Source: a virus. From it: DNA of 64,000 bases. The notes under the pieces are model-generated. The model saw nothing but the letters and a program-made list of their open reading frames with translations, made no database searches and was not told the DNA's origin. A program made the position numbers and the translations under genes. Positions 43,960 through 64,000 of this stretch are shown here, in pieces; position 1 is the first letter of the stretch, and the number at the start of each line of letters is the position of its first letter. Location of the stretch: the IMG/VR virus record IMGVR_UViG_3300050821_005690, positions 38,450 through 102,449 of that record; one strand, written 5' to 3'.

Positions 43960-43960
43960 A

Positions 43961-46900: not shown

Positions 46901-47755
46901 CGGATGAACCTGAAGCCGAGCGGCCGTATGACGTTGGATGATCATCCGATTCTGACCGATGCGTATGGCCGAGGTGGAAGCTTCGACGGGATTACCATGC
47001 AACCTCTCGACCCTGGCGCCGAGACGAAACCGGTAAAGCAAAACTGGAAGTCGAGTGGGTATGTGATCGATGGCGGCCCGCATGACGGCGACCTCATTGC
47101 TTTTGACACGACCGGCGGCTCGCGGGTGGCGCGTGATGCCATGACTGGCGAACAGCTTGACATGAGCGCCATCCGCACGCGCCCAGCGGCGAAAGCGCCG
47201 GGTGCCATGGAATCGCTGGCCAACCGCCTCATGGAGGAAAACCGGAAACAGCGCGAGACCGATCCCTCAATGCCAGAGATGACTTTCGAGCAGGCTCTAG
47301 CTCTCGCGCACCGGGCTCCGAACGAGGATCAAAATACCATCAAGCTTCTCAATTTGGCGGAGCGCGATTGGGCAAATTGGAATAACAACCCCGCAAACAT
47401 GGCAGCGGCGAGGAAGGGAGCCCCAGAATCCACGCTCGACTATTGGGAGCAGCGCTACGGCGTCTCGCCGCGATCTGTGCACTCGCCCGCGCCAGCGCCT
47501 GGAACACCCGCGCCTGCAGCCTCACCACCAACCCCGGCACCTGCAGGAACGGGCACGCCGCCGACGGCTAGGCCCGCACCAACGCCGTCGGCGGCACCAA
47601 CGCTCCCGCCCGGCGTTCCGCCTGGGTCGGAGCACTACCAAAGCAACAAGGGCAAAGAGCGCTGGGTGTCACCGCCGACGGCCGCGGCGCCTAAAGGCAA
47701 TGCCTACGTGCCGGATGGCAAGGGCGGGTGGGTTAACAGCGGGCCGGTCCCGTAA
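43961..47755 (+). CDS. DNA ejection/pilot protein with SleB/Hydrolase_2-like cell wall hydrolase domain
   Basis: TPYQPY.G..VA.F, Y.NPW, GAFGG.R N-terminal region; RTIYGEA...AVANVIRNR...NQFEPWN...TGGATHFY at ~46050-46430. Confidence 0.85.
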   Translation: MCKGSTSTTTQAPSSQAMAAYEQIMQQAQGVAATPYQPYTGQLVAQFTPEQITALNNINQYATSAQPAYAVAGQMAAEAGQPITAADIQQYVNPWTSGVVGATEAEFANTLGMNLNATKGNAISSGAFGGNREGVAEGITSGQVATQEAPVLASLESQGYTQGVNTALSQQQAKLAAAYGLSSVAGAGQQSALTGAQAQFGVGSAAQTTEQAQLNAAYQQYLNAMGYPFQTTGWEAGVAGGIGSLMGGTGTTTTPYTAQQLIGQLGGATTSSIGILGGTGAFGTTGYLNPSSSNSIWNFAHGGAVAALARGGGVSADGVANRTPTVPEAPRTLHAQQRHMVEGHRRAMLFPHGTREIPVAPGMRRTEVNGEVYHYNPRMTHEAEVHGLARAGREHELLGLGPFSKQEVLHRIAGGEVPAAVVERDRDGTEVRGTVGTHVTAPHQWRHFHRTKVPGNTVHIENPEHTLAIRHHHHRADGGMVPGYDLGGATPQAAGVASPNYAIAAPITFSGSPWSGSKLPVPQTQIPHGSLPSPPKQPQQQQQTPSSTNQAQQVGELAKAIQKGMNSPATGVTPAAAGVGAVQTPSGVADVIGSDAALYRRGGRVPQYAEGGGDDDAIYVPPDMPAAAPLNFVSGMPSNGVASDDDTLNQVAARASTHPRDVGPPLALVAPSDGVAPATAGLPPEIAHGNSLKPADRDAAIRTIYGEAADQGPNGQAAVANVIRNRVLDGSYGKSASDVVHAPNQFEPWNTAAGRARMNSMTPEEYESIGNIVDNVWGGKIKDQTGGATHFYAPGAQAALGRNAPNWDDGTGLKIGDHLFFKPGDGAPGTRAMALRASGDEGGDMSAAAYRGVGSGAGAFRPAGRGGIKPDAAGVAPGIDFSQNSKLWPALIMAGGSMMAASRPGTTLGEAVGHGVVSGAQTYEGLKQQEQAAAMNEKKINLESQKLAEELNYHRSHLDIMTKEANTKEAAEKSLADWRQRMNLKPSGRMTLDDHPILTDAYGRGGSFDGITMQPLDPGAETKPVKQNWKSSGYVIDGGPHDGDLIAFDTTGGSRVARDAMTGEQLDMSAIRTRPAAKAPGAMESLANRLMEENRKQRETDPSMPEMTFEQALALAHRAPNEDQNTIKLLNLAERDWANWNNNPANMAAARKGAPESTLDYWEQRYGVSPRSVHSPAPAPGTPAPAASPPTPAPAGTGTPPTARPAPTPSAAPTLPPGVPPGSEHYQSNKGKERWVSPPTAAAPKGNAYVPDGKGGWVNSGPVP

Positions 47756-47917
47756 TGCTGGAGATCTTTCTGCGCGCGCAGCACCCCTGTGTGTTTCTGT
47801 GAAACATTTGCGATTAGCCTTTATCTTTCAGTCCGTTCGTTGCGCGCATCACAAAAATCGGTTGTAGGGCTTCAGATCACGTCCCATCCGTATATGAGTT
47901 CGGCCTTCATTTGATTT

Positions 47918-47950
47918 GTGATATTGGTTCCTCCGGGGATTCTCCGGGGG
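47918..47950 (+). promoter_or_regulatory. late promoter-like motif and hairpin covering the RBS of the giant ORF
   Basis: GTGATAT-N5-CCTCCGGGGA; CCTCCGGGG-ATT-CTCCGGGGG stem ends 5 nt before ATG. Confidence 0.5.
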
Positions 47951-47955
47951 GCATC

Positions 47956-50900
47956 ATGGCCGAACCAGCCAGCAATCCAGCCGACGAAGAGGAAGTCTGG
48001 ACGAAGACGCCAGCAGGTGGCGAGACTTCGGCGCCGGTCTCAGCCGCGCCCGCCGCCGAACCGGCGGAAGAAGAAGTCTGGACGAAGACACCGTCCTGGC
48101 GCGGCTATCCACAGGTCATCGGGTCGGGCGTCGCGCAAGGTGCCATCACCTCGGTTGGCGGGGCGATGCAGGGTGCCGCAGAGCTTCGGCACCCCGACTC
48201 CGAGAACTTCTATACAAGGGCTTTGAAGGTCATCGACCGCGTCGACCGGGGCGAAAGCGTCCCGGAGGACGAAGACATCATCGGCTACCAAAAGCTGGTC
48301 AAGTCCGATGGTTCGCCTGATGTCGAGCACCGGAAGCAGGTGCGATCCGACGCTATGACCTCGGCCGGGATCGCCAAGTCTCCCGAGGCCCCAGCCGCTT
48401 ACGACCCAAGGGAAACGTGGCTCTACAAGACGGGAAAGGAAGTCTCCGAGTACGGCGAACGCAAGTTCCCGATGTCGCAAGAGGAAAAGGAGTCGTACAC
48501 CGGGCGCATTAGCTCTGGCCTCGGCGCTATAGCGCCCCTGGTGGTCGCTGGCGCGGTCGCAGGCCCGGAAGTGGCCATGGGGCTTGGTGCGGCCCAGATG
48601 GGCCTTGGTGCCGCGCACGAGACCGCCGAAGAGGCGCGCGCCAAGGGCGCTTCACCGGAGGCCGTATGGGATGCGGCCGCAACTTCCTTCGGGGTTAATG
48701 CTGCGCTCGGTGCGGTGAAGTTTGATGCCGCGCTCAGGCCGATCAATCGGCTGGCACCAGGGATTTACGACTGGGCGCGCGCTCGCCTGCTGCACGCCAT
48801 GCAGAGTGGTGCGATCTTCACCACTATCGGCGAGGCGCAGGAATGGATCGGCAAGGAGATTGCCAACAAGTTCTATGACGACAAGGCGGGATACAGCTTC
48901 GACATCAAGCGCGTCCTCAGTTCACTTGGCGTCGGCGCGATCGTGGGGCAATTGCATCCGACAAAATACGAAGCCAAGCCTGGAGAGGAAAAGCCCGCGG
49001 CCGAGACGCCTGGAGCGGAAACACCTCCGGCAAAAGGCGGAGAAACCTTCGAGGACATGATGGGTCCTCGGCCCGGGCCGCCGCCGCCGCCGGCCAGAGA
49101 CGATGTGCTTGACGTGGCGCGCGCTAACGGCATCACGCCGGAGGCGTTCGAGGCTCTTGCGCCGGAGGTTCAAAGGAACCTCATACGGGATTTCAAGGGC
49201 GACACATCGATCTTGCCGGAGCAGGATGAGCATCGTCCCGGCGTTCCTGGCGGGCTAAGTGATCCGTCTATCTTTGCGCCCCAAGCCTCGCCTACGGGGC
49301 CAAGCGACTTCCTGCGCGAACGCGGTTTGACCTATGAGCAACTGGCGTCTGCCGACACAAAATATCTGAAGGTTCTTCAGGACGAATGGGCGGCAACGCA
49401 CCCTGACGAACCGTTGCTCAATATCGAGACGTTCAAGCCATCTGATATCCAGGCCGATCCCCAGCGGTTCCAGTTCCGCACCGACCAGATCGATGCAGCG
49501 TCGGGCGTCACCGCGAAGAAGCTTCGCCCTGGTGGCTTTAACCAGACCTTTCCGATGGTGGTCTGGCGCGATCTCGCTGGCAAAGACTTCATCGTTGACG
49601 GTCATCATCGGCTTAATGTCACCAAGCAGATGGAGGCAGCAGGCGAGCCGATCACCGTTCAGGCAATCGTTCTCAGGGAGCAAGACGGCGTCACGCCGCA
49701 AATGGCGAAGGATTTCGGCGAGCGTCGCAACGACTACCGCGACGCTACGGCGGGCGCGCGCCGCATTCCGGGGCTCAATGCGACCCCGCAGGAAATTGCC
49801 GAACTTCAAAACGCTATAGGTCAAAAAGCTCACCCGGAAGAGATTGAGAAGCTTCCGATCGTTCAAAGGGCCTACGCTCTCGGCAATGCGCAAAAGCCGG
49901 TCCAGGATCAGCCCGGCTATGGGTCGCCGGAATATCGTGCCAATCGGGTCTTCAATTTCAATGGCGAGCGGGTTGTTGGTTGGGACAATGCCGTTGACCG
50001 GCTTGAGCAGCGGGCACGCTCGTTTTCGACGGACGGCCCGGTCGCGAATGAGCGACGTGCCTGGATTGTCATGGGACCGGGCGGCGCGGGCAAGTCAACC
50101 GCAGTCATGGACTCGTTAGCGAGGCGTACCCGCTCCGCCATCGTCGATGCCGATGAAGCCAAGCCAACGATGCCGGAATATGCCGGTGGCCTCGGCGCCG
50201 GTGCAGTGCACGAAGAATCGACCGACCTGACTTACGGGCCGCACGGTGTTCTGCCCCGGATAATCCAAAATGGTGCCAATTTTGTCGTTGGCAAGATCGG
50301 CCATAAAGCGTCGAGCATCCGCGAACTCCGGGACGCCCTGAAGGCCGAAGGCTACAAAGTCAGTCTAATCAATGTCGATATTGAGCCGCAGGAGGCGTTT
50401 CGGCGCCGCATGGGCCGTTTCCTGCGGACCGGCCGCATCAACTCGACCGGGTTCCATGGTGATACGAGTTCCGCCAAAGGTGTGGTCACCACTAAAAATT
50501 ACCATATATTGAAGGGAGAAGGTTTCGATGGCTCACTCACGATTGACAACAATCGCCCCGAGCGCCCTTGGGAAGGGTCCGAAGAACTCGCCCGAGAAAT
50601 TGGATTACAACAGCCACGAAGCCCAAGACGAGCGGGATACCAAGAAGATGCTGGCGGGCATACGCTCCAAGGCGAAACGGTTCCCAACCTCAGACCGCAC
50701 CGAGTAGTAGCCGCCGACGGCACGTCGATCGACGTTGTGCCGATTGTCGTCGAAGCCAGTCAGTTACGCACCTCCAAAGATCCTGGATACAATCAGGCGC
50801 TTCAACCGCGTCAGCGCGATCGGGCGGCAGCGGAGGCGCAGGAAAGATACATTGCGGCTAATCTTGATCCTGAACTCTTGGGCCATTCGGCAGAGGCCGA

Positions 50901-53900
50901 CCGAGGCGCCCCGATCGTTGGACCGGACGATCCCGATGTCGAGAGCGGCAATGGCCGCGTCGAGGCGATCAGGCTGGCTTATGGGCAGGAACGAAACGGC
51001 CAGCCGTCGACTGCACAAATCTATCGGAACTGGCTGACGCAGCAGGGCGTCGACGTCTCCCGCTACCGGGAACCCATCCTGGTGCGCAAGCGCATCACGC
51101 CGATGACGCTGGAGCAGCGGCGGGCTTTCACTGTAGCAGCCAATAAGGATACCAAACTTTCGATGTCGATGCCGGAACGGGCGCTGGTCGATGCCCGGAA
51201 CCTTGGCACCGACGCCTTGGCTCTCATTCACAATCCCGACGACCTGGGCGCGGCGATCAACCGGCCGTTCTTCCGCCGGTTCGTCGCTTCGCTGCCGCAG
51301 GCCGAGCAGGGCGGCATGGCGGACGCCAAGGGCAATCTGTCGGCCGAAGGCCTCGCGCGCCTGCGCAACGCTATCCTGGCCAAGGCCTATGGCGATGCGG
51401 GCCTATTGGCGCGGGTGACCGAGTCCACCAACGACGAAGTTAAGTCAATTTCGAATGCGCTGACGGCTGCCGCGCCGCAATGGGCGCGCTTGCGGGCGGC
51501 TGTCGCTGATGGGCGAGTGCGCCCGGACATGGACGCCACGCCGCAATTGATCGAGGCAATAAGCCGGACGGCCGAACTCCGCAGCAAGGGCATCAAGCTT
51601 CACGACTATCTCGCCCAACTGGACGCCTTCGACCGGCCGGAGCCGGAGGTCGAGGACTTCATGCTGGCGTTCTACCATCCGGTGACGCGGCGTGCCGCCT
51701 CCTCGTCGCGCATTGCCGATGAGCTTCGGTTTTTTGCCCAAGAGGCCGCCAAGGTTTCGTCCGAGAAGGGCCTTGATCTGGGGCTAGCGCCAGTTGACCG
51801 CGAGCAACTCAGCAAACTCATGCTCGCTAAGGCAAGGGAGGAATACGAAAATGAGCTACCCGACCGCGATGGCACTCGTGCAGGCGCGCGCGATGAAGAG
51901 GATGGCCGCGAAGTACGCGGACTTAGACCTGGGACGGAGGGCCAATTACCTTCACAAAGAAGCCCTCTTGGCTTTGAAGAAGAGGCAATCCGCGCTCAGC
52001 AACCCACGGCCGACGAACTCCGCGCCCTCCGAAGGCCAGAGAGGCGGCTGAACGCTCGCGATCCGAGCCCGTGGGAGATTCGGAACAGCTACAAGAACAA
52101 AGCGAACACGGCTCTCGCTCACAAGATTTTCCCATTTCTGACCCACATCTCATACGATCGGTTTGCCGCCCATCGCTGGGTCCTCAAGCTTATCGACTTC
52201 AATCCATCGAACGGCGAAGAGGTGGCGAGAGGCCTTGTTAACCATGGCTACATGGCCGAGGGCGCCGCCGCCAAATATCGCAATTCTCCGGCCGATCAGA
52301 GGCGGTACGACGCCGTTTACAAGGCGTTTGCCGACTGGAAGGCGAAGCAAGAGGCAGGGTTGTTCGGCGGAGAAAAGGCGCAGGTCCCGCTGCGGCGCGA
52401 AGATGCGTACTCGGAAAATCAGAAGCTTGTTTATGGCCTGAAGCCTGGGGGAGTCGTCGTTCATGACGCGCTGGAGCTTGCCGTCACGAGACTGCCGGGA
52501 GCGAGCGATAAATATCACGTCGAGGGGTTCAAGACGCCGTTTGCCGCCAGCGGCGCAATTGCAAAGCTAACCGACCTGCAAATGCAGCGGGGGGTAAGGT
52601 CGCCGACCGAGTCCACAGTCCTGAAGGGGCCGAACGCTCCCGCGGTCGAGCCCGGCGCCGAAGGTAAGCCGCAGACCGTCATCCCTGGCGCCGAGCGGAT
52701 CAGCACCGCGGAACTCCTTCGCCGTCGCGCCGCCGAGCCGCTTCGAGCAACCCAGCCGCAGGCAATTCCCGGTGGCCTGTTCGGCAATCTGCTTGGCCAG
52801 ACCGATCTTCTCGACGCCATCCGCAAGGAGCCGCGCGCGCGCAAGGTGTTTGGCCACGAGACCCTGATCGATCAAGCGCTGCGCAAGGTGCCCTTGACGT
52901 CTGGGGAAAATCTGCCCAACTTATTCGGAGAGGTAGAAGATGCTGGACAAAGACCTAGACCTGACCGAGGAAAGGTTCGCCCTGGAGCACAAGCGCTTCC
53001 TGGAGCAGCACAACCCAAGCGTCCTACGCGGGCAAAGCGACCCGGACAGCTATCTCTCTTCGGTGGGGAGGGCGGCGGGGGAGAGGCTCGACCACCTGAT
53101 GTCGCACTACCTCCGGGACAAGGACCTACAGAAGCTATCGGCCCCGAAGAGGGCACTGGCGTTACAAAGCCGCCAGTTCGAGGTGGAGGAAGTGATCAGG
53201 CACGACCTGATCTTCCAACCCCTGCCGGAGGGGCACGACCGCCCGTACGAGTAAAGCCATCGATCCGGCAAGGCCAGCAGGAAGCCGAGCAGAAAATCGC
53301 CGAGCGCTCGCGCTCGAACTATCGCATTACCGATGAGGACGCGATCGGCGAAGGCGGCCCGAAGCAGAAGGTTCGCCAGAACATCGAGGCTATCCGCCTT
53401 CTCAAGCAGATCGAGGACGAGGGCCGTGAGGCGACGCCCGGCGAGAAGGCCATCCTGGTCAAGTACACCGGGTGGGGCCACGTCGCGCAGGATATGTTCG
53501 CGACTACGGGCAATCGCGAAGCCTGGGAGGGCGAGCGCGCTCAGTTACGGGCGCTGCTGACTGACGAAGAACTAGAGGCGGCGCAGGCCTCCACCCCCAA
53601 CGCCCACTTCACCTCGCCCGACGTCATCCGGGGCATGTGGGACGCGATGGACCACCTCGGCTTCGAGGGCGGCAATACCATCGAGCCATCTGTCGGCATT
53701 GGGCATTTCATCGGTCTCATCCCCGACAAGATGGCGCCCAAGACGGCCTGGACGGCGGTCGAGCTTGATCCGATCAGCGCGCGGATCACGAAGGCGCTCT
53801 ATGCCGGGACGGAAGTGAACGCTCACGGATTCGAGGATCTGAAACGACCGGCCAATTATTACGACCTCGCCATCTCGAACGTGCCGTTCGGCAAATATAA

Positions 53901-56900
53901 TTTGCGGGAGAAGCCCTACGGCTCGTTCCCGATTCACAATTTCTTTTTCGTGAAGTCGCTCGACAAGGTGCGGCCGGGCGGCATCGTCGCTTTCATCACC
54001 TCGCGTTATTCCATGGATGCGCCGGAGCACACCGAGTTTCGGCGCTTGTTGGCAAAGACCTCCGATCTGGTCGGCGCCATCCGCCTGCCCGGCGGCAAAG
54101 AGGGCGCGTTTGCTGACAACGCCGGAACACAAGTCACGACCGATCTCCTGTTCCTGCGCAAAAAGATACCCGGTCAGGATTTCGCTAGCGGCCATAAATG
54201 GGACGGGCTGAAGGATATCGAAACCCCGGAAGGCCCCACCAAGATCAACGAGTATTACGTCGCTAATCCGCACATGATGCTCGGCGACATGCGCCTGATC
54301 GGCTCACAGTACGGCCCCAACGAACCCGTGCTGATCGGCGATCCGAACGGGCTGCGCGAGAAGATCGCGGAAGCGGTGGCCAAAAACACCCCGGCTGGCG
54401 CAATGACGCCTCGCACCGAGGCCACGACCGTTGAAAACATTCCCGCGGGCGACATTGATGCGGGCATTAAAGACGGGGCCTTCTTCCTTCAGAACGGCAA
54501 GCTGCATCAGCGGGTCGCCGGACTGGGCGTGCCGAGGGATGTGTTGCCCGCCGATCACGCTCGCATTGAGCGCCTCATCGGCCTTCGCGATCTCTATAAC
54601 GGTCTGCTCGGGGCCCAACTCGGCGGCGAGGGAGATCGGGAAGCCCTGCGCAAGCAATTGCGCGAGGCCTACGATGATTTCGTCAAAGAGCACGGACCGA
54701 TCAATAAGGAAGTCCGCACGGTCACCAAGCGCCTGACCCAGGCAGGCGAGCCCGTCGTTATTACCAGAACGCCGAATCTGCGGACGTTCAAGGAGGACCC
54801 CGACGCGTGGAAGGTGGCATCGCTCGAACACTACGATGCCGAGAAAGACACGGCGAAGCGTTCCGACATTCAAACGCGAGATGTTATCGCTCCCCCGCGC
54901 GAGCGAGAGATCAGAGGGCCTTCTGATGCTCTAGCCGCCTCGCTCAACGACACCGGCGGCATCGACCTCGATCACGTTGCCAACTCGCTCAATGTCGACA
55001 GCCACGATGCTGCCATCTCGGCCCTCGGCAACCTCATCTTCCACGACCCCAACGGACGGCAGTGGAAGACCGCCGACGAATATCTCAGTGGCAACGTCGT
55101 AGAGAAGCTGGAGGAAGCGCGCTCGATCGCGCAAAGCGATCCGTCGTTCCAGCGCAACGTAAAGGCCCTGGAGAAGGTGCAACCGAAGCCGGTCACCGGC
55201 AGCCAGATTTATGCTGGCTTCGGAGCGACATGGATTCCCGGTGAAGTGTACGAGAGCTTCCTGGAGGATCATCTTGGCGCCAGTGATGTTCACGTCCAAC
55301 AGATCCCGATCACCGGCGAGTGGCGCGTCGAGGGCGACACTTTCGCGAGAGATGCGCGCATCAAGTACATCCCGAAGGATCAGAATGGCATTTCGCGTGC
55401 AAACGTCCGTGAGATGGTCTCTGCCGCCCTGAACGGGCGCACCATAACCATCAGGGACAAGATTAAGAATCCTGATGGCAGCACCAGCGAGCGGGTCAAC
55501 ACCGCAGCAACCCAGGACGCCTCTAACAAACTTGAGGCTTTGAAGGAGGCCTTCACCGGCAATCCCCAAGAAGGAATCGACGATTGGTGGTCAAAGGACG
55601 ATGAGCGCCGGCAGCGGATGGAGGGAATCTTCAACCGCACTCACAACAATCTCGCCCCCCGCGAGTTTGACGGCTCACACTTGGAGCTGCCGGGGCTCAA
55701 TCCGATGTTCGCCGAGCGTAAGCATCGCCTCGACGCGATCTGGCGGATTATCCAGCGCGGCAACACCCTGCTCGGGCATGCGGTCGGAAGCGGCAAAACC
55801 GTGACCATGATCGCGGCGGGCATGGAGCAAAAGCGCCTCGGGCTGATCAACAAGCCCGCCTATGTGGTGCCGAACCACATGCTGGAGCAGTTCTCGCGCG
55901 AGTTCCTACAGGCCTACCCGAACGCCAAAATCCTCGTCGCCAGCAAAGAGGAAACGTCTGCGGATCATCGCAAGGCCTTCCTGGCCAAGGTGGCGTCGAA
56001 CGACTGGGACGGCGTTGTCATCACGCACGACGCTTTCGGCCGGATCAACATGGGCCAGGAGTATCGGCGCCAGTTCATTCGCGACCAGATCGGTGAAGCC
56101 ATCCGGGTCATCCAGGCCGAGAAGGCCGAGTCCGGCGCCAAGTCACCCACGGTCAAGCGCCTGGAGGCAGCCAAGAAGCGACTGGAAGAAAAACTGCAAA
56201 AGCTGCTGAACGAAGAGCGCAAGGATGAGGGCACCTCGTTCGAGGAAAGCGGCATCGATCATCTGTTCGTCGATGAGGCGCACCTGTTCAAGAACCTGCA
56301 TTTCTTCACGCGCCTGGGCGGTATCAAGGGTTTGGCCACAAGCGAGGCGCAGCGCTCCGAGGACTTGTTTTTGAAAATCCGATACCTGGAGCAGAAGCGC
56401 CCTGGGCGCTCGGCGGTGTTCGCCTCGGGCACGCCGATCTCGAACACCATGGCCGAAGCCTGGACCATGATGCGCTATCTCCAATTGGACAATCTGCGCG
56501 AGCGCGGCCTTTCGAACTTCGATGACTGGGCCCGGACCTTCGGCCGGATCTCCAAGAAGATGGAGACTTCGCCGGACGGGCGTACGCTGCAGGAAGTCGC
56601 CTCGATGTCCTTCGGCAATGTGCCGGAGTTGGGTGCCCTTTGGAACGAGGTTGCCGACACCAAGACGGCGGACATGCTCAAGCTGCCGCGGCCGGACGTG
56701 GTGCGCGAGAACGGCGAGAAGGGGGTCACGACCGTCGAGGCCGAGCCCTCCCGCCAGGAAGAGGCGGCCATTCAAGCCCTGGTCGCCGAGGCCGAGCATA
56801 TGAGGGCGCACCCGAAGCGGCCGGAGCCGGGCGACCGCATCATGCTCAACATCGTCACGGACGGCCGCAAGGTGGCGACCGATGGACGCCTGCTTGGCGA

Positions 56901-59900
56901 TATGGATTTCAACCCGCGCGGCAAGGTGGCGCTCGCGGTCAACAACATTCACAAAATCTGGGAGGAAGGTAATCAGGACCCCGACGCTCCAAACAAGGGG
57001 CAGATGGTTTTCCTCGATCTCGGCGTGCCGAAGAAAGGCGGCGGCGCCGATCGATTTGACCTTTATCGCGATCTCAAGCAGCGCCTAGTCGAGAAAGGCA
57101 TTCCGGCAAAGGACATTGCGTTTATCCACGACGCGGACAGCGACGACAAAAAGGCCAAGCTGTTCGGGGCTGTGCGCAGCGGCAAGGTCAGAGTCTTGGT
57201 TGGCTCGACCGGCAAGATGGGTATGGGCACCAATGTCCAGGACCGCCTCATCGCTAAGCACGACATCGATGCGCCGTGGAAGCCTGCCGAGGTGGAGCAG
57301 CGCGACGGCCGCATCGAGCGCCAAGGCAATTTGAACGCGAACGTGCGGATCTACCGCTACGTGACCAAGCGCTCGTTCGACGCCTTCATGTGGCAGACCC
57401 TTGAGCGCAAGGCGAACATGCTCAACCAGTTCTTGAGCGGCGCCAAGGGCTCGCGAACCATGGAGGACGTGGGCGAGGTATTGCCGGAGGCGGCCGAGTT
57501 GAAGGCAGCCGCGAGCGGCGACCCGCGCATCATGGAGCATGCCGAGCTTGATCGGCGGGTGCGGCAACTGTCCTCGCAGCGGCGCTCGTTCGAGCAAACG
57601 CAGCAGCGCGCGACTTACGAGATCGGCGTGGGCAAAAGCCAACTCAAGCAGTATCAGGACCATTTGCCCGGCGCGCGCCTGGACGCCGACATGGTCAACG
57701 ACCTGTCCGGCAAGAACTTCCAGGTCGACCTCGGTGACCTGGGGCCATTCACCGAGCGCAAGGCCGCGGGCGATGCCATTCTAGATGCCCTGCGTAAGCT
57801 CGACTCGCGAAGTTACTACCGACCTGTCGTGCTCAACATGGGCCGCATGTCCGGGTTCGACATGCAGATGCAGGTGCAAACTCACTACGACCACAGCAGC
57901 GGCACGGTGCTCGTAGCCAACCCTTCACTGAAAGGCCCGTCCGGCGCCGGCTACATCGCCAGCGACTTTTATATCAATGAGCACACGGAAGGTCTCGCAG
58001 TAATCCGCCGCCTCGAAGGTGCGCTTGGCCGGGTCAAAGACGAGCCGTCGCGCATAGAAGGGCTCATCAAAAACCAGCAAAATGAAATCGAGCGGCTTCA
58101 GAAGACGTTGGGCGAGACGTGGCCGCGCGAGCAGGAGTACCGCGAGGCCTTGGCGAAGCTCGACGCTCTGACGAAGGCACTCAAGGCACCGAAGCATCCT
58201 GACGTCGCCGAGATGGAGCACGAGAACGCTTACGCCAAGCTCCAGGCCGAGGCGCTCGAAGCGCAGCACGAGTCGCCGATCTTTGACGAAGACAAGGAGT
58301 GGCTGTCTAAGCCCAAGCTGATCAAGGAGAAGGCGGAGAAGGTCGCTGAGACCGTCCGTGATATCCCGCGCCCGCGCGATGTGGTTGGCGTCAGCGACAT
58401 CACCAAGGTCGGGCCGCCGCACGACATGCAAAAGCATGCGGTGTTCGGCCTGCCGCTCAATCCCTTGAGCGCCCTGGAGCAACTCAAGGGGCATTCGTTC
58501 AACGTCAGTTATGCGACCAGGGCGAAGCTCGGGCGGCAGTTGGACGACGCCATCCGTCTTGTCGGCAAGGACAAGATGCTCCTACTCGACAACGGTGCCT
58601 TCTCATTGCACCGCCAGGGAAAAAGCACCCTCGAACCGGGCTACATGGAGGATTACGAGAAGTGGGCGGGCGGCATCATGGACCGCTCGCCGCAGGCTAT
58701 TGCTGTTGTGCCCGATGTGATCGGCGGGACCGAGCACCAGAATGCGCAGCTTGTCCGCGACTGGCTCGGCGGCAAGATCGACCCGGACCGCTCAATGGCG
58801 ATCTGGCACCTGCACGAGAGCATGGATTACCTGAAATACCTCGCTCAAAGCTTCAATCACATCGGGTTTGGAAGCTCCGGTCAGTTCTGGAAGGTAGGCA
58901 CACCCGAGTGGCACGCCCGCATCCAGGAAGCGCTCGACACGATCCAGAAGATGGAGGACGACGGCGAGATCACCCGTCCGCGCATTCACATGATGCGGGC
59001 CCAGTCGCAAGCGCACCTCTATCCGTTCGATAGCTCGGACTCGACCAACGTCGCGGTCAATCACAATCGCTTCCGCGAACTCTACCCCGGGCCGGACCAC
59101 GTCGGCCGCATGGCCGAGCGCATCAACGAGCGCATCCAGGGGAGCGCCACAGGCAAGGAAACTCCGCACCAAGAAGCCCGGCCGCTTGGCGAGACGCCGG
59201 AGCGCCCGGACTCTGATCTGTACGCCTTGGCACAGTGGTTCAACCACAATTACGAAGTGGTGAAGCGGCAGGGCGACCTGTTCGACCACATCAAAGAGAA
59301 CCGTCCGGCATGGGGGAAGGGCGCGCAAGAGCGCATCCCTACCGACTGGGAGACGGCGCAGCGGCGAGTGATCGGCCTACTTGATGAGAACGCTATCGAT
59401 CTCGGCCCCACTACTCGCGCCTATGTCAGCGAGAAGTGGAGTGCCAACGAGCGCAAGATTGCCGACGCCGTCCAGGCGATCGGCGACCGCATGGCGCCGC
59501 AATCCTCGATCTATGGCGCCAAGGCCTTGCACATGCACGGTTCGCCGATCTGGGGTGTGTTCGTCAACTCGAAGGCCTTCCCGCAGACCATCGCGTGGTC
59601 GCTGGAGCGCGCGGGCAAGCTCGGCGATGCAGTCGAGAGGGCGGGCCCGCTGGCGCGCGTCGCCACGACCGTCCGTCACGAGATTATCCACCACCTCAAG
59701 AACTCGGGGCTTATCCGCCCCGACGAATGGAAGGCCCTTGAGCAGGCTGCGAAGGAGGGCGATTGGCTCAAGAAGTACGACATCGAGGACCGCTACTCTC
59801 ATCTCAATGAAGCCGGCAAGCTGGAGGAAGCAATTGCCGATCATTTCGGGCAATGGGGGCAAGAGCGCGAAATCCTCAAGCAGATTAAGGACCCGATACA

Positions 59901-62900
59901 GCGACTGGTTCGGCAAGCGTACATGCGCATGGACCTGTTCTTCCGGCAGGTGGCGGCGGCGGCGCGCAAGTTCCTCGGCAAGGATGCGACCGCCAGCGAC
60001 GTGTTCTCGCGCATCGAGAGTGGCGAAGTCGGCAAGCGCACCTCAGAGCAGATCGAAGCGCAGAAGCGCTATATGGCGGAACACCCCGACGAGTTCGATG
60101 AGGGTGCTAAAGCCCAGACCCCTGGCGGCGAGGCGCGCGAGCGTCGTCAAGCGGCCCGCGCCGCCGGCGTGACGCCGCCGAGAGAAGGCGCCTTCGATCG
60201 CATCCTTCGCAATGAGACCGCCGACAAGCTTCGCGAGGCCACTGCCAAGCTCGCCGGGCAATTCGGCGTCGATAAGTTCGTTCGCGATGCGCAGGTGCGA
60301 TGGACGCCGATGGCCGCGCGCGATGCGACGGTCGAGTTCCGCTACGACATCAAGCAGTACATGAACGCGCGGCGGCAAGCCCGTGAGGACTGGAATCGCT
60401 TTGACAAGCGCCTCGAAAAGGAATTTTCGGACGAGCAGCGCAAGCGGATGTACGACGCCGCCGATGAGGAAAGCGTGGCTCTGCAACAGGGCCGCCCGAC
60501 AAATGGCATTGGCCTTTCTCGTCTGACGGGAAATGAGCGCGATGCTGTCAAAGCCCTACAAGATCGTTCCCAGCTTAATTGGGAAACAGCCAGACTGCTC
60601 AAGATCGTCAGGGGTGACGGCCTGCCGAGCTACGTCCCGCGCATGCTGGTGCGCGCAGTCGAAGGCATTTGGGGAAGGAAGTTCGAGAAGGGTGTCGGCC
60701 CCGGGGCCGAGGTGGTGCGCGACATCCGCACGCTGGCGCTCGCCAACGCCAAGCTCGAAGAGGCGATTGCGGGCAAGCAACTCGTCAATACGATCAAGGA
60801 GATCGGCGACCGCGCTGGCAATCCGCTGGTTAACGTCGGCGGCGCCCCGGTGCATCGGCCGGGCCCGGAGGCCATGGTCGGGCACGCGCTCGATCAGGCC
60901 TTCGGCCACGACTTCACGACCACGACGCCAAACCTGAAGCATCGCAAGTATCTCACCCGCGAAGAGACTGAGGCGGCGGCGAACCGCCTCGCGCCGCGTA
61001 CGGAAACGCCCGAGTGGACGTTCCTCAACCATCCGTCCCTGCAGGAATTGCGTCTAATGACGGTGGACCCGGAGGGCGACACCTATCGGAGCAACGTGAA
61101 GCGCGTGAGCGGCATGACCGTACCGAAGCGCATGACCGCACTGAAAGATCAGTACGGGGACGTTCACTGGGAAAAGGCGCCGATTTACTTCCGCAGAGAG
61201 CTAGAGGGGCCGCTGAAGGCGGCGATGCAAGCCGGCGGCGGGTTTGAACGTGCGTTGATGCAGCTAAAGGGCAAGATCATGAGCTACATCATGTTCTCGC
61301 CCCTGATCCACAATCAGATCGAGTGGGGCCGTGCGCTCCCGGCGGCGCCCGGGAAAGTGCTGACGTTCCAGGTTTACTTGGAAGGCAATCGCATCGCCAA
61401 CGATCCGGCGCAGATGCGCTTGGCCATCTCCGGTGGCGTCGTTCCGATCGGCGGTCACGGCTTCATGCAGGACGTGTCCTCGATTGCGGAAGCCCCGACC
61501 ATGCGGGCGGGCAAGTCGATCGAGGCAAAGACGCTCGGTTACGGCGCAGCCGCCATTGGCCATCTGACCAGACTCTACGACCCGGCCACGGGCATGAACG
61601 AGGTGCGCAAGGCGACCGACTGGTTCGGCAATATGTGGAACAACGTCTTCCTCTGGGATCGGGTTCGCGATCTGCAGATGGGGCTTTGGAGCTACATCAA
61701 AGACGACATGATCGCGAAGGGCTATCACGCCATTGCGGCGAACGTGGCCGCTGCGCATTTTGCCAACCGATACGCCGGTGCGCTCCCGCTGGAAGCCATG
61801 TCGGGGTTTGCGCGCGGGGTCGCCAACGTGGCGTTGTTCTCGCGCTCCTTCACGCTCGGCAACGTGGGGGCGATCAAGGATGCGGTGGTTGGTCTGCCGC
61901 GCGATGCCCAGGCTTTGATTCAGCACCAGCTTGGGTGGGAGGAACTGGCGAAGACGCAGAGCTATGTGAAGCGCAAGTCGCGCGTGATGCTGGCGATGGA
62001 TGCGGGGCTTTATTTCGCCACCCTCTCGCTCATGCAGAGTGCGTTCCATGTTGCCGGTCCCGGCCACACCATGATGACGCTCGCTGGCACAATTGCTGGT
62101 GGCGCGCTCGGCGGTCGTGCTGGTCCGTACGGCCGCCTTGCGGCGGCGGCGGCATTGGGCGCGGGCGGCTTCGGCCTTGCCAGCGTGCTCGGTGCTGGTC
62201 CTGGCACGCGCAAGCTTGAGGATGAGCTTCAAGGCTACTGGGATCGCCTCGGTGATCTGGCGGCCAAGGTCTATGAACACCCGGTGCAGGCGGTTGCGAA
62301 TCCCTTCTTCCAGTACAAGGCCCTGATGGGCCTGTCGGCGACCTCGGAGAACGAGCCCGGCAAGGAGTGGCGCATCCTTTGGGGATACGACAAGGACGGC
62401 AGAGCCCAATACATACGCCTGCCTGTGGGCAAGGTGACCGAAGAGCTTATGAGTTGGGGCATCGAGCCGCTTGATTTGCTCCACCGCAAGCTGAGCACGT
62501 TCCTGAAGCCAATTACGCAAATCTGGGATAATAACGCCGGGTTCAATCAGAAGGTCTACGATAAGAACGCGGAGGGCGCGGTTGAAAATGCGGAGGTCCT
62601 CGCCAAGATCGCGGGGCTCATAATCTCAGAGCAAATGCCGTGGGACGTTCTGAAGACCGGCGCGGAGGCGGTGGGTAGTGGCCCGACAGCCGACACCGCG
62701 CGCGGGAAGCTTGTCGGGCAGGCGACCGGGTTTACCTTCAGTCAGGGGCACCCCGAGGGCCCGGAGGCTGGTGTTCTGGCGCATGCGCGCGAGCGATACG
62801 AGTACCGCAAGCAGCAAGCGTTGCCCGAAATTCGCAAGCTGATCCGTGACGGTAAGGTGGACGATGCGTACAAGCTCATGGACAACATCCACATCCCGCC

Positions 62901-64000
62901 TGGGCTGCAAAAATACTACGTCTTCACCACGGAGAATCCGAAGGCGGGCCTTTCCAACCGGATGCTCCGCGACTTCATGCAGTACGCCTCGCCGGAGGAA
63001 ATCGAGCAATTCCAGCGGGCGCAAGAGCGGGCTGCGGCTGAGACCCCGCAGGCCGAACCGACGGCCGGCCATGCCGACGGCGGCGCGGTCGAGGATGCGG
63101 ACCTGGGCGATGCGCCGACGCCAAAGCCGGGGCAGATTATCCCCACGCGCGACGATATAAGGTCCGCGCCGTCCAAGGTCGCACACAGCCTCGGCGAGGT
63201 GACCGGCGTCAACGATGCTGTGAAGGCCGCACGCGGGGAGATGACCCCGGAAGAGGAAAAGAAGTTTGCTCTCACGGCGGCGGCGGGTCTGCTTCCTGGT
63301 GGACGCGGCCTCGGGTCCGCCGCTTCGCTGGCGCGGATGATCGGCCGGAGGGCCTTCGGCACAGAGCTTCACTTCGAGCGCGCGCGCGGCGGCCGGGTTG
63401 TCCCGCCCGGCCTATCCGCTGAGTACGCCGATAACCTCGGGCGCTGGGGCATTTTCAGCAAGAGCGGTGAACTGCTATCGAGCGGCCCGACGCGCAATCA
63501 GGCGATCGAGGCCCTGGTGCATCGACGCGCGAGCGGCGGTCGCGTCGATGCACGGAACATCAACCATAATCCGTCAGAGGCGCAAAAACGTAGTGGCAAC
63601 TACGCCAAGGACCATCTGCATTGGAACGGCCTGCCGCTGACCATCGAGAACGCCAGGGGCTCGGTCCGCCGCGGCGTTGGCAGAGACGGCAAGCCGTGGG
63701 CCGTCCGCATGCCGGCGCACTATGGCGATGTGGCGGGTACGAAGGGCAAGGACGGCGATAAAGTTGACTTCTACCTGGGGCCGCACACCAAGGCGCCCAT
63801 AGTGTACGTGGTGGATCAGAAGGATCACGAGACCGGCCGTTTCGATGAGCACAAGGCCATGGGCGGCTTCGCCAGCAAGCTCCATGCGCAGCGGACCTAC
63901 GAACAGGCGTTCTCGGACGGCAAGGGCAAGCACCGCATCCACGCCATCACGGCCGCGCCAGTCGCGGCGTTCAAGCGCTGGCTGGACGAAGGCGACACCA
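47956..64000 (+). CDS. giant DarB-like polyvalent virion protein (>5,300 aa, runs off window)
   Basis: frame 1 open to the end (no terminated frame-1 ORF in the track); VDGHHRL 49594; GPGGAGKST 50074; VESGNGR 50938; EPSVGIG 53683 and NVPF 53878; HAVGSGKT 55777, DEAH 56272, QRDGRIERQGN 57298; LDNGAFS 58585; HEIIH 59677; InPase-like GNYAK...HYG...DGD.VD from ~63560. Confidence 0.92.
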   Translation, partial: MAEPASNPADEEEVWTKTPAGGETSAPVSAAPAAEPAEEEVWTKTPSWRGYPQVIGSGVAQGAITSVGGAMQGAAELRHPDSENFYTRALKVIDRVDRGESVPEDEDIIGYQKLVKSDGSPDVEHRKQVRSDAMTSAGIAKSPEAPAAYDPRETWLYKTGKEVSEYGERKFPMSQEEKESYTGRISSGLGAIAPLVVAGAVAGPEVAMGLGAAQMGLGAAHETAEEARAKGASPEAVWDAAATSFGVNAALGAVKFDAALRPINRLAPGIYDWARARLLHAMQSGAIFTTIGEAQEWIGKEIANKFYDDKAGYSFDIKRVLSSLGVGAIVGQLHPTKYEAKPGEEKPAAETPGAETPPAKGGETFEDMMGPRPGPPPPPARDDVLDVARANGITPEAFEALAPEVQRNLIRDFKGDTSILPEQDEHRPGVPGGLSDPSIFAPQASPTGPSDFLRERGLTYEQLASADTKYLKVLQDEWAATHPDEPLLNIETFKPSDIQADPQRFQFRTDQIDAASGVTAKKLRPGGFNQTFPMVVWRDLAGKDFIVDGHHRLNVTKQMEAAGEPITVQAIVLREQDGVTPQMAKDFGERRNDYRDATAGARRIPGLNATPQEIAELQNAIGQKAHPEEIEKLPIVQRAYALGNAQKPVQDQPGYGSPEYRANRVFNFNGERVVGWDNAVDRLEQRARSFSTDGPVANERRAWIVMGPGGAGKSTAVMDSLARRTRSAIVDADEAKPTMPEYAGGLGAGAVHEESTDLTYGPHGVLPRIIQNGANFVVGKIGHKASSIRELRDALKAEGYKVSLINVDIEPQEAFRRRMGRFLRTGRINSTGFHGDTSSAKGVVTTKNYHILKGEGFDGSLTIDNNRPERPWEGSEELAREIGLQQPRSPRRAGYQEDAGGHTLQGETVPNLRPHRVVAADGTSIDVVPIVVEASQLRTSKDPGYNQALQPRQRDRAAAEAQERYIAANLDPELLGHSAEADRGAPIVGPDDPDVESGNGRVEAIRLAYGQERNGQPSTAQIYRNWLTQQGVDVSRYREPILVRKRITPMTLEQRRAFTVAANKDTKLSMSMPERALVDARNLGTDALALIHNPDDLGAAINRPFFRRFVASLPQAEQGGMADAKGNLSAEGLARLRNAILAKAYGDAGLLARVTESTNDEVKSISNALTAAAPQWARLRAAVADGRVRPDMDATPQLIEAISRTAELRSKGIKLHDYLAQLDAFDRPEPEVEDFMLAFYHPVTRRAASSSRIADELRFFAQEAAKVSSEKGLDLGLAPVDREQLSKLMLAKAREEYENELPDRDGTRAGARDEEDGREVRGLRPGTEGQLPSQRSPLGFEEEAIRAQQPTADELRALRRPERRLNARDPSPWEIRNSYKNKANTALAHKIFPFLTHISYDRFAAHRWVLKLIDFNPSNGEEVARGLVNHGYMAEGAAAKYRNSPADQRRYDAVYKAFADWKAKQEAGLFGGEKAQVPLRREDAYSENQKLVYGLKPGGVVVHDALELAVTRLPGASDKYHVEGFKTPFAASGAIAKLTDLQMQRGVRSPTESTVLKGPNAPAVEPGAEGKPQTVIPGAERISTAELLRRRAAEPLRATQPQAIPGGLFGNLLGQTDLLDAIRKEPRARKVFGHETLIDQALRKVPLTSGENLPNLFGEVEDAGQRPRPDRGKVRPGAQALPGAAQPKRPTRAKRPGQLSLFGGEGGGGEARPPDVALPPGQGPTEAIGPEEGTGVTKPPVRGGGSDQARPDLPTPAGGARPPVRVKPSIRQGQQEAEQKIAERSRSNYRITDEDAIGEGGPKQKVRQNIEAIRLLKQIEDEGREATPGEKAILVKYTGWGHVAQDMFATTGNREAWEGERAQLRALLTDEELEAAQASTPNAHFTSPDVIRGMWDAMDHLGFEGGNTIEPSVGIGHFIGLIPDKMAPKTAWTAVELDPISARITKALYAGTEVNAHGFEDLKRPANYYDLAISNVPFGKYNLREKPYGSFPIHNFFFVKSLDKVRPGGIVAFITSRYSMDAPEHTEFRRLLAKTSDLVGAIRLPGGKEGAFADNAGTQVTTDLLFLRKKIPGQDFASGHKWDGLKDIETPEGPTKINEYYVANPHMMLGDMRLIGSQYGPNEPVLIGDPNGLREKIAEAVAKNTPAGAMTPRTEATTVENIPAGDIDAGIKDGAFFLQNGKLHQRVAGLGVPRDVLPADHARIERLIGLRDLYNGLLGAQLGGEGDREALRKQLREAYDDFVKEHGPINKEVRTVTKRLTQAGEPVVITRTPNLRTFKEDPDAWKVASLEHYDAEKDTAKRSDIQTRDVIAPPREREIRGPSDALAASLNDTGGIDLDHVANSLNVDSHDAAISALGNLIFHDPNGRQWKTADEYLSGNVVEKLEEARSIAQSDPSFQRNVKALEKVQPKPVTGSQIYAGFGATWIPGEVYESFLEDHLGASDVHVQQIPITGEWRVEGDTFARDARIKYIPKDQNGISRANVREMVSAALNGRTITIRDKIKNPDGSTSERVNTAATQDASNKLEALKEAFTGNPQEGIDDWWSKDDERRQRMEGIFNRTHNNLAPREFDGSHLELPGLNPMFAERKHRLDAIWRIIQRGNTLLGHAVGSGKTVTMIAAGMEQKRLGLINKPAYVVPNHMLEQFSREFLQAYPNAKILVASKEETSADHRKAFLAKVASNDWDGVVITHDAFGRINMGQEYRRQFIRDQIGEAIRVIQAEKAESGAKSPTVKRLEAAKKRLEEKLQKLLNEERKDEGTSFEESGIDHLFVDEAHLFKNLHFFTRLGGIKGLATSEAQRSEDLFLKIRYLEQKRPGRSAVFASGTPISNTMAEAWTMMRYLQLDNLRERGLSNFDDWARTFGRISKKMETSPDGRTLQEVASMSFGNVPELGALWNEVADTKTADMLKLPRPDVVRENGEKGVTTVEAEPSRQEEAAIQALVAEAEHMRAHPKRPEPGDRIMLNIVTDGRKVATDGRLLGDMDFNPRGKVALAVNNIHKIWEEGNQDPDAPNKGQMVFLDLGVPKKGGGADRFDLYRDLKQRLVEKGIPAKDIAFIHDADSDDKKAKLFGAVRSGKVRVLVGSTGKMGMGTNVQDRLIAKHDIDAPWKPAEVEQRDGRIERQGNLNANVRIYRYVTKRSFDAFMWQTLERKANMLNQFLSGAKGSRTMEDVGEVLPEAAELKAAASGDPRIMEHAELDRRVRQLSSQRRSFEQTQQRATYEIGVGKSQLKQYQDHLPGARLDADMVNDLSGKNFQVDLGDLGPFTERKAAGDAILDALRKLDSRSYYRPVVLNMGRMSGFDMQMQVQTHYDHSSGTVLVANPSLKGPSGAGYIASDFYINEHTEGLAVIRRLEGALGRVKDEPSRIEGLIKNQQNEIERLQKTLGETWPREQEYREALAKLDALTKALKAPKHPDVAEMEHENAYAKLQAEALEAQHESPIFDEDKEWLSKPKLIKEKAEKVAETVRDIPRPRDVVGVSDITKVGPPHDMQKHAVFGLPLNPLSALEQLKGHSFNVSYATRAKLGRQLDDAIRLVGKDKMLLLDNGAFSLHRQGKSTLEPGYMEDYEKWAGGIMDRSPQAIAVVPDVIGGTEHQNAQLVRDWLGGKIDPDRSMAIWHLHESMDYLKYLAQSFNHIGFGSSGQFWKVGTPEWHARIQEALDTIQKMEDDGEITRPRIHMMRAQSQAHLYPFDSSDSTNVAVNHNRFRELYPGPDHVGRMAERINERIQGSATGKETPHQEARPLGETPERPDSDLYALAQWFNHNYEVVKRQGDLFDHIKENRPAWGKGAQERIPTDWETAQRRVIGLLDENAIDLGPTTRAYVSEKWSANERKIADAVQAIGDRMAPQSSIYGAKALHMHGSPIWGVFVNSKAFPQTIAWSLERAGKLGDAVERAGPLARVATTVRHEIIHHLKNSGLIRPDEWKALEQAAKEGDWLKKYDIEDRYSHLNEAGKLEEAIADHFGQWGQEREILKQIKDPIQRLVRQAYMRMDLFFRQVAAAARKFLGKDATASDVFSRIESGEVGKRTSEQIEAQKRYMAEHPDEFDEGAKAQTPGGEARERRQAARAAGVTPPREGAFDRILRNETADKLREATAKLAGQFGVDKFVRDAQVRWTPMAARDATVEFRYDIKQYMNARRQAREDWNRFDKRLEKEFSDEQRKRMYDAADEESVALQQGRPTNGIGLSRLTGNERDAVKALQDRSQLNWETARLLKIVRGDGLPSYVPRMLVRAVEGIWGRKFEKGVGPGAEVVRDIRTLALANAKLEEAIAGKQLVNTIKEIGDRAGNPLVNVGGAPVHRPGPEAMVGHALDQAFGHDFTTTTPNLKHRKYLTREETEAAANRLAPRTETPEWTFLNHPSLQELRLMTVDPEGDTYRSNVKRVSGMTVPKRMTALKDQYGDVHWEKAPIYFRRELEGPLKAAMQAGGGFERALMQLKGKIMSYIMFSPLIHNQIEWGRALPAAPGKVLTFQVYLEGNRIANDPAQMRLAISGGVVPIGGHGFMQDVSSIAEAPTMRAGKSIEAKTLGYGAAAIGHLTRLYDPATGMNEVRKATDWFGNMWNNVFLWDRVRDLQMGLWSYIKDDMIAKGYHAIAANVAAAHFANRYAGALPLEAMSGFARGVANVALFSRSFTLGNVGAIKDAVVGLPRDAQALIQHQLGWEELAKTQSYVKRKSRVMLAMDAGLYFATLSLMQSAFHVAGPGHTMMTLAGTIAGGALGGRAGPYGRLAAAAALGAGGFGLASVLGAGPGTRKLEDELQGYWDRLGDLAAKVYEHPVQAVANPFFQYKALMGLSATSENEPGKEWRILWGYDKDGRAQYIRLPVGKVTEELMSWGIEPLDLLHRKLSTFLKPITQIWDNNAGFNQKVYDKNAEGAVENAEVLAKIAGLIISEQMPWDVLKTGAEAVGSGPTADTARGKLVGQATGFTFSQGHPEGPEAGVLAHARERYEYRKQQALPEIRKLIRDGKVDDAYKLMDNIHIPPGLQKYYVFTTENPKAGLSNRMLRDFMQYASPEEIEQFQRAQERAAAETPQAEPTAGHADGGAVEDADLGDAPTPKPGQIIPTRDDIRSAPSKVAHSLGEVTGVNDAVKAARGEMTPEEEKKFALTAAAGLLPGGRGLGSAASLARMIGRRAFGTELHFERARGGRVVPPGLSAEYADNLGRWGIFSKSGELLSSGPTRNQAIEALVHRRASGGRVDARNINHNPSEAQKRSGNYAKDHLHWNGLPLTIENARGSVRRGVGRDGKPWAVRMPAHYGDVAGTKGKDGDKVDFYLGPHTKAPIVYVVDQKDHETGRFDEHKAMGGFASKLHAQRTYEQAFSDGKGKHRIHAITAAPVAAFKRWLDEGDT
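50528..50707 (+). CDS. nested +1-frame ORF (59 aa) overlapping the end of the zeta-like domain
   Basis: AAGGGAGAAGG before ATG; AT-rich CATATATT upstream. Confidence 0.45.
   Translation: MAHSRLTTIAPSALGKGPKNSPEKLDYNSHEAQDERDTKKMLAGIRSKAKRFPTSDRTE
51851..52051 (+). CDS. nested +1-frame ORF (66 aa) after the ddrB-ParB domain
   Basis: GGGAGG 9 nt before ATG; host frame is linker-like here. Confidence 0.5.
   Translation: MSYPTAMALVQARAMKRMAAKYADLDLGRRANYLHKEALLALKKRQSALSNPRPTNSAPSEGQRGG
52940..53254 (+). CDS. nested +1-frame TnpV-like protein (104 aa)
   Basis: ccTTGACG at 52894, GGAGAGG RBS, GC-rich third positions; HKRFLEQHNP...YL..V...A.ERL..L...EEVI..DLIF resembles TnpV. Confidence 0.65.
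   Translation: MLDKDLDLTEERFALEHKRFLEQHNPSVLRGQSDPDSYLSSVGRAAGERLDHLMSHYLRDKDLQKLSAPKRALALQSRQFEVEEVIRHDLIFQPLPEGHDRPYE

Follow-up and report, generated by a model that had tools for sequence, protein, structure and literature searches.

Among the closest described systems is DpdA of phage 9g (AHN84519.1), which inserts preQ0 in phages with dG+/dPreQ0 genomes, is encoded by a stand-alone gene within a FolE-QueD-QueE-(Gat)QueC cluster adjoining replication genes, and, when expressed alone in Escherichia coli, inserts the preQ0 of the host (dPreQ0) (PMC6884629). The 'singleton' phage DpdAs such as SfI gp34 and Pam5 gp30 (Hutinet et al. 2019, PMC6884629) are free-standing early-region genes, encoding ~230-250 aa, of phages that have no preQ0 pathway and presumably rely on the host pool; the hosts of such DpdA-only phages mostly possess the queuosine pathway, and the study left open what these singletons do (PMC6884629). 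Bacterial DpdA (bDpdA), from the Salmonella Montevideo Dpd restriction-modification system (7UI4), uses Asp95 (in a D-x-G-x-F motif, with Phe99) as acid/base and Asp256 as nucleophile, both essential for guanine exchange, reads the base with Asp130 and His181, and contains, besides a Zn site, a large insertion, Ins8 (PMC10164549). Phage-type polyvalent proteins such as P1 DarB (Iyer et al. 2017, PMC5512222) are giant multidomain products of the virion module that combine a DarB methyltransferase and helicase with DdrB-ParB, Zeta-kinase and inorganic pyrophosphatase (InPase) domains. Here we describe a DpdA-like domain that forms an internal part of a polyvalent DarB-like protein of more than 5363 aa, encoded in a 64,000-nt stretch of viral DNA (the window; bases 38450-102449 of the 102,449-bp linear IMG/VR virus record IMGVR_UViG_3300050821_005690). 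The DpdA literature (including PMC6884629) treats the enzyme as free-standing, the main text of the polyvalent-protein survey (PMC5512222) does not mention a TGT (tRNA-guanine transglycosylase), queuine, archaeosine or deazaguanine domain, and our full-text literature search found no description of a DpdA/TGT domain in polyvalent or DarB proteins. The domain presents a known enzyme family in a new architecture and is, since the main text of the survey never mentions a base-exchange domain, an addition to the known polyvalent repertoire. On balance we favour the view that it is a complete DpdA-type guanine transglycosylase, captured once, which would replace guanine in phage DNA with a host-supplied 7-deazaguanine as an anti-restriction measure.

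The motifs on which the initial annotation had based a TGT/DpdA-like barrel are all present in the order it gave and inside the coordinates it assigned, between nt 58579 and 59049 of a single uninterrupted open reading frame (ORF), and the domain as now delimited is slightly wider than first drawn (Table 1). It matches the PHROG family phrog_887 ('queuine tRNA-ribosyltransferase') with an E-value of 6.9e-27 and has 471 homologues at E<=1e-5. Also in this PHROG are the DpdA of phage 9g (2e-98), which has been validated by experiment, and the singleton DpdA of SfI (4e-99). Comparison by hhalign of a family profile, built from a 75-sequence alignment of the domain's family (A2), with 9g DpdA gave a probability of 97.35% (E 1.6e-11) and brought the motifs of the two proteins into register (Table 1). 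We judge the motif set and the family match together to be far beyond chance.

Residues D55, D97, I99, H128, H188 and D205 (domain numbering) are invariant in 75/75 family members, and the predicted catalytic residues are all among them: D55 is D3560 of the whole protein (in DNGAF), D97 is D3602 (PDVIGG), H128 is H3633 (WHLHE), H188 is H3693 (IHMMR) and D205 is D3710 (SSDS). D3560 aligns to 9g D72 and is the predicted counterpart of the general acid/base Asp of the D-x-G-x-F motif (bDpdA Asp95/Phe99). D3710, the second Asp of its motif, aligns to the Asp of 9g 'SCDSS' at the nucleophile position and would be equivalent to bDpdA Asp256, an assignment made through 9g DpdA and motif position rather than by direct superposition. 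The invariant D3602 and H3633 supply an Asp and a His corresponding to the base-recognising bDpdA Asp130 and His181; both pair with 9g residues in hhalign, with MAFFT placing the 9g Asp one or two columns off. H3693 aligns to 9g H196, a hallmark that is present in DpdA1 and absent from DpdA2 (PMC6884629). Judged by its sequence, the domain looks catalytically competent and falls, within the TGT superfamily, in the branch of DpdA1-like phage 'singletons'; SfI gp34 and Pam5 gp30, at 26-35% identity, fall on the same side of the tree. There are no cysteines between aa 3506 and 3797 and no conserved Cys after the nucleophile in the family, so that the Zn site present in TGT and in bacterial DpdA is missing from the domain. 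This site is not defining for the phage enzymes, since 9g DpdA, with one cysteine in its C-terminal part, likewise has no CxCxxC motif.

An AlphaFold2 (AF2) model calculated on alignment A2 is an alpha/beta (TIM) barrel, confident throughout (pLDDT 92.4, pTM 0.87), with the invariant residues at the C-terminal ends of the beta strands. In an exhaustive comparison of this model with 48,161 PDB representatives (VIA-align), the archaeosine TGT (ArcTGT) 1iq8 ranked first (Z 15.8) and Cap10 second (9ntn_B, Z 15.4, root-mean-square deviation (rmsd) 3.5 over 226 residues), followed by the bacterial TGT 3unt (Z 14.9); the DNA preQ0 insertase DpdA 7ui4 (Z 14.9, rmsd 3.5 over 224 residues) had the highest identity, at 15%, and QTRT2 reached Z 13.2. 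Significant matches among predicted viral structures (BFVD) were almost all phage 'queuine tRNA-ribosyltransferases', including nt-1 and phiST proteins. The barrel proposed in the initial annotation is thus borne out by the phrog_887 match, the alignment to 9g DpdA, and the matches of the model to solved and viral structures, and its fold, a (beta/alpha)8 barrel with ArcTGT, Cap10, TGT and DpdA as top matches, is TGT-like. The Foldseek check against the PDB also put ArcTGT first, but it did not separate this enzyme from generic TIM barrels and was less informative than VIA-align and BFVD. With 9g DpdA the domain has in common the PHROG family, the register of the motifs and the TIM-barrel fold class, and with bacterial DpdA the fold and the predicted logic of one Asp as nucleophile and another as acid/base. 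At BFVD rank 24 we also noted A0A6J5LU57, which comes from an uncultured phage, has 877 aa and is annotated as an 'ART-PolyVal-like domain-containing protein'. It matches the barrel weakly in structure (E 1e-4) and may be a further polyvalent protein that contains a barrel of this kind.

That a tRNA enzyme, ArcTGT, is the best structural match agrees with an action on host RNA rather than DNA, and host tRNA had already been raised as a target in the initial annotation. In this reading an injected tRNA-guanine transglycosylase would edit host tRNA at position 34 or elsewhere and thereby bias translation or disarm a tRNA-based defence; polyvalent proteins often bear host-takeover effectors (PMC5512222). 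We regard this as quite improbable, given that the domain has no Pfam TGT match, no cysteines and hence no Zn subdomain, and no C-terminal tRNA-binding domains, and that its kinship in sequence is with a DNA enzyme, 9g DpdA. Measured against canonical TGT (PF01702), it lacks both the Pfam match and the CxCxxC...H Zn site with C-terminal subdomain. The rank of Cap10 similarly agrees with a protein that binds or processes a 7-deazaguanine-modified protein, for example neutralising type IV CBASS (cyclic oligonucleotide-based antiphage signaling system) or QatABCD-type deazaguanylation-dependent defences. Cap9 and Cap10 show QueC and TGT folds acting on proteins (bioRxiv 10.1101/2025.04.06.647259), and the pairing of some family members with a PP-loop enzyme (described below) mimics a QueC-TGT pair. 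Such a role is very improbable, however: the top four Z values are tied within 1, the likeness to Cap10 is structural only and the sequence similarity is to DpdA, the Asp pair of transglycosylation is invariant, and the phage's own genome has no QueC-like (Cap9) or CD-NTase partner.

Fusion of the barrel into a DarB-like protein, the other half of the earlier proposal, also stands: the domain lies in frame, and its flanking sequence is recognised by phrog_10089 ('DarB-like antirestriction'), with E-values of 5.7e-201 and 5.7e-288. It begins at a Met (nt 58426) exactly where stand-alone homologues of ~280 aa start. We considered a separately translated nested gene and rejected it, because no Shine-Dalgarno-like sequence precedes this internal Met. 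A single-sequence search of viral contigs for related loci returned nothing, and an alignment-based scan recovered 80, in 79 of which the gene is free-standing. Only one locus (L004), on a 101.8-kb contig from a different metagenome, has the domain inside a giant ORF, whose product is colinear with the present protein and 56% identical to it in ParB, 39% in the methyltransferase, 31% in the helicase and 62% in the DpdA-like domain, the best-conserved segment between the two. An exhaustive search of representatives gave 366 clusters at E<=1e-3, and only two of these are large polyvalent proteins, one of 1569 aa with a Zeta-kinase domain (P0122) and one of 4010 aa with InPase, ddrB-ParB and LPD38 domains (P0123). 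A quick maximum-likelihood tree groups the four polyvalent copies in a single clade (SH-aLRT 100), which lies within the stand-alone phage genes and indicates that a ~280-aa phage gene was captured a single time. The fusion is rare, real and old, and from the independent, colinear L004 with its best-conserved DpdA-like part we take it to be under selection. A decayed or purely structural remnant of the captured gene, with no enzymatic role, is scarcely credible: we found nothing specific in its favour, all family-invariant residues are intact, the domain is the part least changed between two giant proteins that have diverged elsewhere, and the model is confident throughout the barrel.

Other members of the family have been joined to other enzymes. 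Four clusters (P0275, P0276, P0277 and P0279), which form a separate clade of ~570-aa proteins, carry an N-terminal DpdA-like domain and a phage N6-adenine methyltransferase (TIGR01712, E 5e-52), and in five (P0130, P0136, P0270, P0272 and P0274) the partner is a DndC/PAPS-reductase-like PP-loop enzyme. Every fusion partner known for the family is a DNA-modification enzyme (Dam, DndC-like or DarB), which is why we favour DNA over tRNA as the probable substrate and which is a further point against the editing of host tRNA. The combination of DndC-like and DpdA-like enzymes is a hint that two enzymes may form a DNA-modification module other than QueC-DpdA. DndC-like genes (G002, G004, G006 and G048) were seen near the loci L005, L007, L009 and L074, and no PAPS-reductase-like gene is present in the phage's own genome. 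The contexts of the metagenomic homologues were read from IMG/VR loci. Among 51 loci with stand-alone genes, no conserved neighbour recurred in more than 8; the leading clusters were artefacts of antisense ORFs, and the others were terminase, Prim-Pol and VRR-NUC genes.

As to the source of the inserted base, the initial annotation had remarked that the window has no preQ0 synthesis genes, and this holds for the whole 102,449-bp record, in which we found no match for QueC, QueD/PTPS or FolE (GTP cyclohydrolase I). The only radical-SAM ORF of the record (Table 1), which has a related site in one relative (L003:988-1860:-), matched no NCBIfam model and hence no QueE model, and it is not demonstrably QueE. 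Unlike 9g DpdA, the domain thus occurs in a phage without co-encoded FolE, QueD, QueE and QueC. This does not exclude it from DpdA, because the singleton class lacks these genes too (PMC6884629). Since the phage encodes no synthesis genes, the base would be taken from the host, and use of a host pool has precedent both in 9g DpdA, which works alone in E. coli, and in Pseudanabaena phage Pam5 (L085, 3974-5453), where the gene of a VUT-family transporter (YhhQ-like, for queuosine precursors) is found two genes downstream of a DpdA-like 'transglycosylase'. The Pam5 arrangement suggests phage-driven salvage of a 7-deazaguanine base; a VUT/YhhQ transporter gene is absent from the present genome and from 50/50 close relatives.

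Several observations weigh against a DpdA-type exchange of guanine for a host-supplied 7-deazaguanine. Several sequence searches do not reach the TGT family: Pfam and NCBIfam scans of the domain gave no match, and for Pfam TGT (PF01702) the protein had none at E<=0.1; searched against the genome in six frames, the same model gave none at E<=10; phmmer and a profile hmmsearch against PDB sequences yielded nothing meaningful; and hhalign of the family profile with E. coli TGT was not significant (probability 0.4%), even if it aligned the D-x-G-x-F motifs of the two. It is consequently through phage DpdA and structure that the domain is tied to the superfamily. Fold alone is weakly diagnostic because generic TIM barrels come within ~1 Z of the TGT-family matches, such as the unrelated PdxJ (Z 14.8) and pyruvate kinase (Z 14.1). 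The domain is ~20% identical to 9g DpdA on a very long tree branch, the members of its own clade are known by sequence, and Hutinet et al. left open a functional divergence of singleton DpdAs (PMC6884629). QueC is absent from the records of 50/50 relatives, 20 of which are at least 90% complete. A PAPS-reductase-like (DndC-like PP-loop) gene is found in the records of 9/50 relatives, often adjacent, and such a partner is a hint that some of the family, at least, perform another or an added chemistry. Stand-alone homologues (56-59% identical) also occur in a Roseiarcus sp. metagenome-assembled genome (L088) and in Roseiarcus fermentans DSM 24875 (L089), presumably on prophages; these two genomes have TGT and only weak partial QueC-family matches inside 600-aa proteins, so that preQ0 may not always be available or used. 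Finally, the case for packaging and injection draws on gene position and on the inference of Iyer et al. for such proteins.

Some of these observations would also fit the same fold and covalent-Asp chemistry on DNA with another outcome, either insertion of a base that is neither preQ0 nor preQ1, for example one that a DndC/PAPS-reductase-like PP-loop enzyme makes or activates or one from salvage, or glycosylase action on host or phage DNA without re-insertion. Besides the lack of QueC in the phage and its relatives, the Roseiarcus genomes without a convincing QueC, and the DndC/PAPS-reductase-like genes that are directly adjacent in several relatives and fused in five clusters, a G-S-S-G loop replaces the G-G-L-V-G of 9g at the place where the TGT loop contacts the 7-substituent (PMC10164549), and DpdA2 is known to be substrate-promiscuous. 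Against these stand the missing PAPS-reductase-like gene in the phage itself, the invariance of all residues that bind the Watson-Crick edge of guanine or 7-deazaguanine and of those for exchange, and the fact that every characterised DpdA inserts a 7-deazaguanine (including PMC6884629). We consider an outcome of this kind rather unlikely.

For the favoured exchange of guanine for a host 7-deazaguanine we propose the following course. A stand-alone ~280-aa phage gene would have been captured once, in frame, into a DarB-like protein whose gene closes the virion-structural module. If the domain works as TGT and DpdA do, D3710 would attack C1' of deoxyguanosine in double-stranded DNA and displace guanine, with D3560 as general acid/base and D3602 and H3633 reading the base, and a free 7-deazaguanine would resolve the covalent D3710 intermediate. 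The incoming base would be preQ0 or a near relative from the queuosine pathway or salvage pool of the host. Tethered to the DarB methyltransferase and the SNF2 motor, the domain would allow one polypeptide both to methylate and to base-exchange phage DNA and so blunt restriction, a pairing that the initial annotation had already suggested for incoming DNA. The target may be the freshly ejected genome or, late in infection, that of the progeny. In bacteria, DpdA depends on a separate ParB-fold ATPase, DpdB (PMC10164549), whereas here ParB-like and SNF2 ATPase domains lie on the same polypeptide. This parallel is no more than suggestive, because polyvalent proteins that have no DpdA commonly contain such domains too.

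The giant protein is probably carried in the virion and delivered with the DNA, judging from the position of its gene and the inference of Iyer et al. (PMC5512222), and the arrangement suggests that base exchange may travel with the injected genome. A stronger version, which we hold to be doubtful, is a self-contained, virion-delivered DNA hypermodification machine that marks the entering genome in cis with the 7-deazaguanine pool of the host: after ejection the SNF2 motor would track along the entering genome, perhaps with the ParB-like ATPase domains in the role of DpdB, while the methyltransferase and the DpdA-like domain marked it. To our knowledge, every 7-deazaguanine modification of phage DNA is regarded as the post-replicative work of a free-standing DpdA, usually encoded beside precursor-synthesis genes. 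If the stronger version were true, this would be the first base-exchange modification of DNA by an injected protein, before any phage gene expression; if the giant protein is simply packaged, base exchange could be delivered with the genome and would then join methylation as an immediate-early anti-restriction measure. Either would extend the polyvalent-protein repertoire and DpdA biology. The searches also outline a large, uncharacterised DpdA-like clade, mostly metagenomic, never found with QueC and recurrently combined, by fusion or as neighbours, with Dam methyltransferases and with PP-loop enzymes of the DndC type.

Table 1. Features of the giant gene, its DpdA-like domain and the surrounding record; nucleotides are numbered from the first base of the window unless a contig is given, and motif pairings are those of the hhalign comparison with 9g DpdA
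Feature	Nucleotides	Residues (aa)	Strand	Evidence or 9g pairing
Terminase large subunit	19461-21206
Portal	22698-25472
DNA-ejection/lysozyme protein	43721-47755
Giant polyvalent (DarB-like) protein gene	47911..63999	at least 5363	+	one stop-free frame, cut by contig end
ParB-like domain	49432..49809	508-633	+	phrog_1033 'ParB-like partition protein', E 4.2e-5, weak match
Zeta-toxin/AAA_33 P-loop kinase domain	50059..50439	717-843	+	Pfam PF06414, E 2.2e-8
ddrB-type ParB superfamily domain	50716..51093	936-1061	+	Pfam PF18763, E 1.4e-27
DarB-like N6-methyltransferase and SNF2/ResIII helicase module	53218..58293	1770-3461	+	phrog_10089
DpdA-type guanine transglycosylase (TGT-superfamily TIM barrel) domain, predicted	58426..59301	3506-3797	+	phrog_887, hhalign, AF2
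Motif LLLDNGAFS	58579-58605	3557-3565	+	LLDNGAFS with 9g FLDSGAFS (D72)
Motif VVPDVIGG	58705-58728		+	VVPDVIGG with 9g SVLDGIGD
Motif IWHLHES	58801-58821		+	WHLHE with 9g FHAGE
Motif GFGSSG	58864-58881		+	GFGSSG with 9g LGGLVG
Motif RIHMMR	58981-58998		+	IHMMR with 9g VHGFG (H196)
Motif FDSSDSTN	59026-59049		+	FDSSDST with 9g YSCDSSS
HExxH motif HEIIH	59677..59691	3923-3927	+	motif search; only HExxH in the protein
Polyvalent-type inorganic pyrophosphatase (InPase) domain	63577..63984	5223-5358	+	Pfam PF18823, E 6.4e-47
Radical-SAM protein, CPRRCWFC	G000:C1:15824-16696 (outside the window)	291	-	phrog_9298, E 3e-18

The giant gene lies directly downstream of the ejection-protein/lysozyme gene and after the terminase-portal-tail module, in a window that also encodes tail and other virion proteins; GC content is ~61%. 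The terminase has its closest cultured relatives among Roseobacter and Paracoccus phages (~31-36% identity) and so points to a phage of Alphaproteobacteria. In addition to phrog_10089, the DarB-like module matches the phrog_11801 DNA methyltransferase and Pfam SNF2-rel_dom, ResIII and Helicase_C. With its many unrelated enzymatic domains, DarB module, DdrB-ParB and InPase, the protein can be assigned by its domain content to the phage-type polyvalent (DarB-like) proteins of Iyer et al. 2017 (PMC5512222); like P1 DarB it is encoded in the virion module and has a Zeta-kinase domain, and it differs from the polyvalent proteins of that survey in the base-exchange domain.

CheckV rates the record complete (100% estimate). 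The giant ORF is cut by the record end (window position 63999) just past the InPase domain. Terminal repeats are absent from the record, which leaves naive circularisation, by which the giant ORF would gain 21 codons before a stop, without support. Because the ORF runs off the end and terminal repeats are lacking, the record may be less complete than the CheckV estimate, or circularly permuted.

About 125 aa past the DpdA-like domain is the motif HEIIH, followed ~50 residues further on by EEAIAD. The region has no Pfam match, and a protein-atlas search returned unnamed clusters and a weak LPD1 lead. By analogy with the proteins of Iyer et al. 2017 (PMC5512222), it may be a candidate zincin-like processing metallopeptidase (MPTase). 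Two hydrophobic Gly/Ala-rich segments of the giant protein, at 48508-48585 (aa 200-225) and 62137-62193 (aa 4743-4761), resemble membrane spans and would fit an ejected protein that contacts the envelope.

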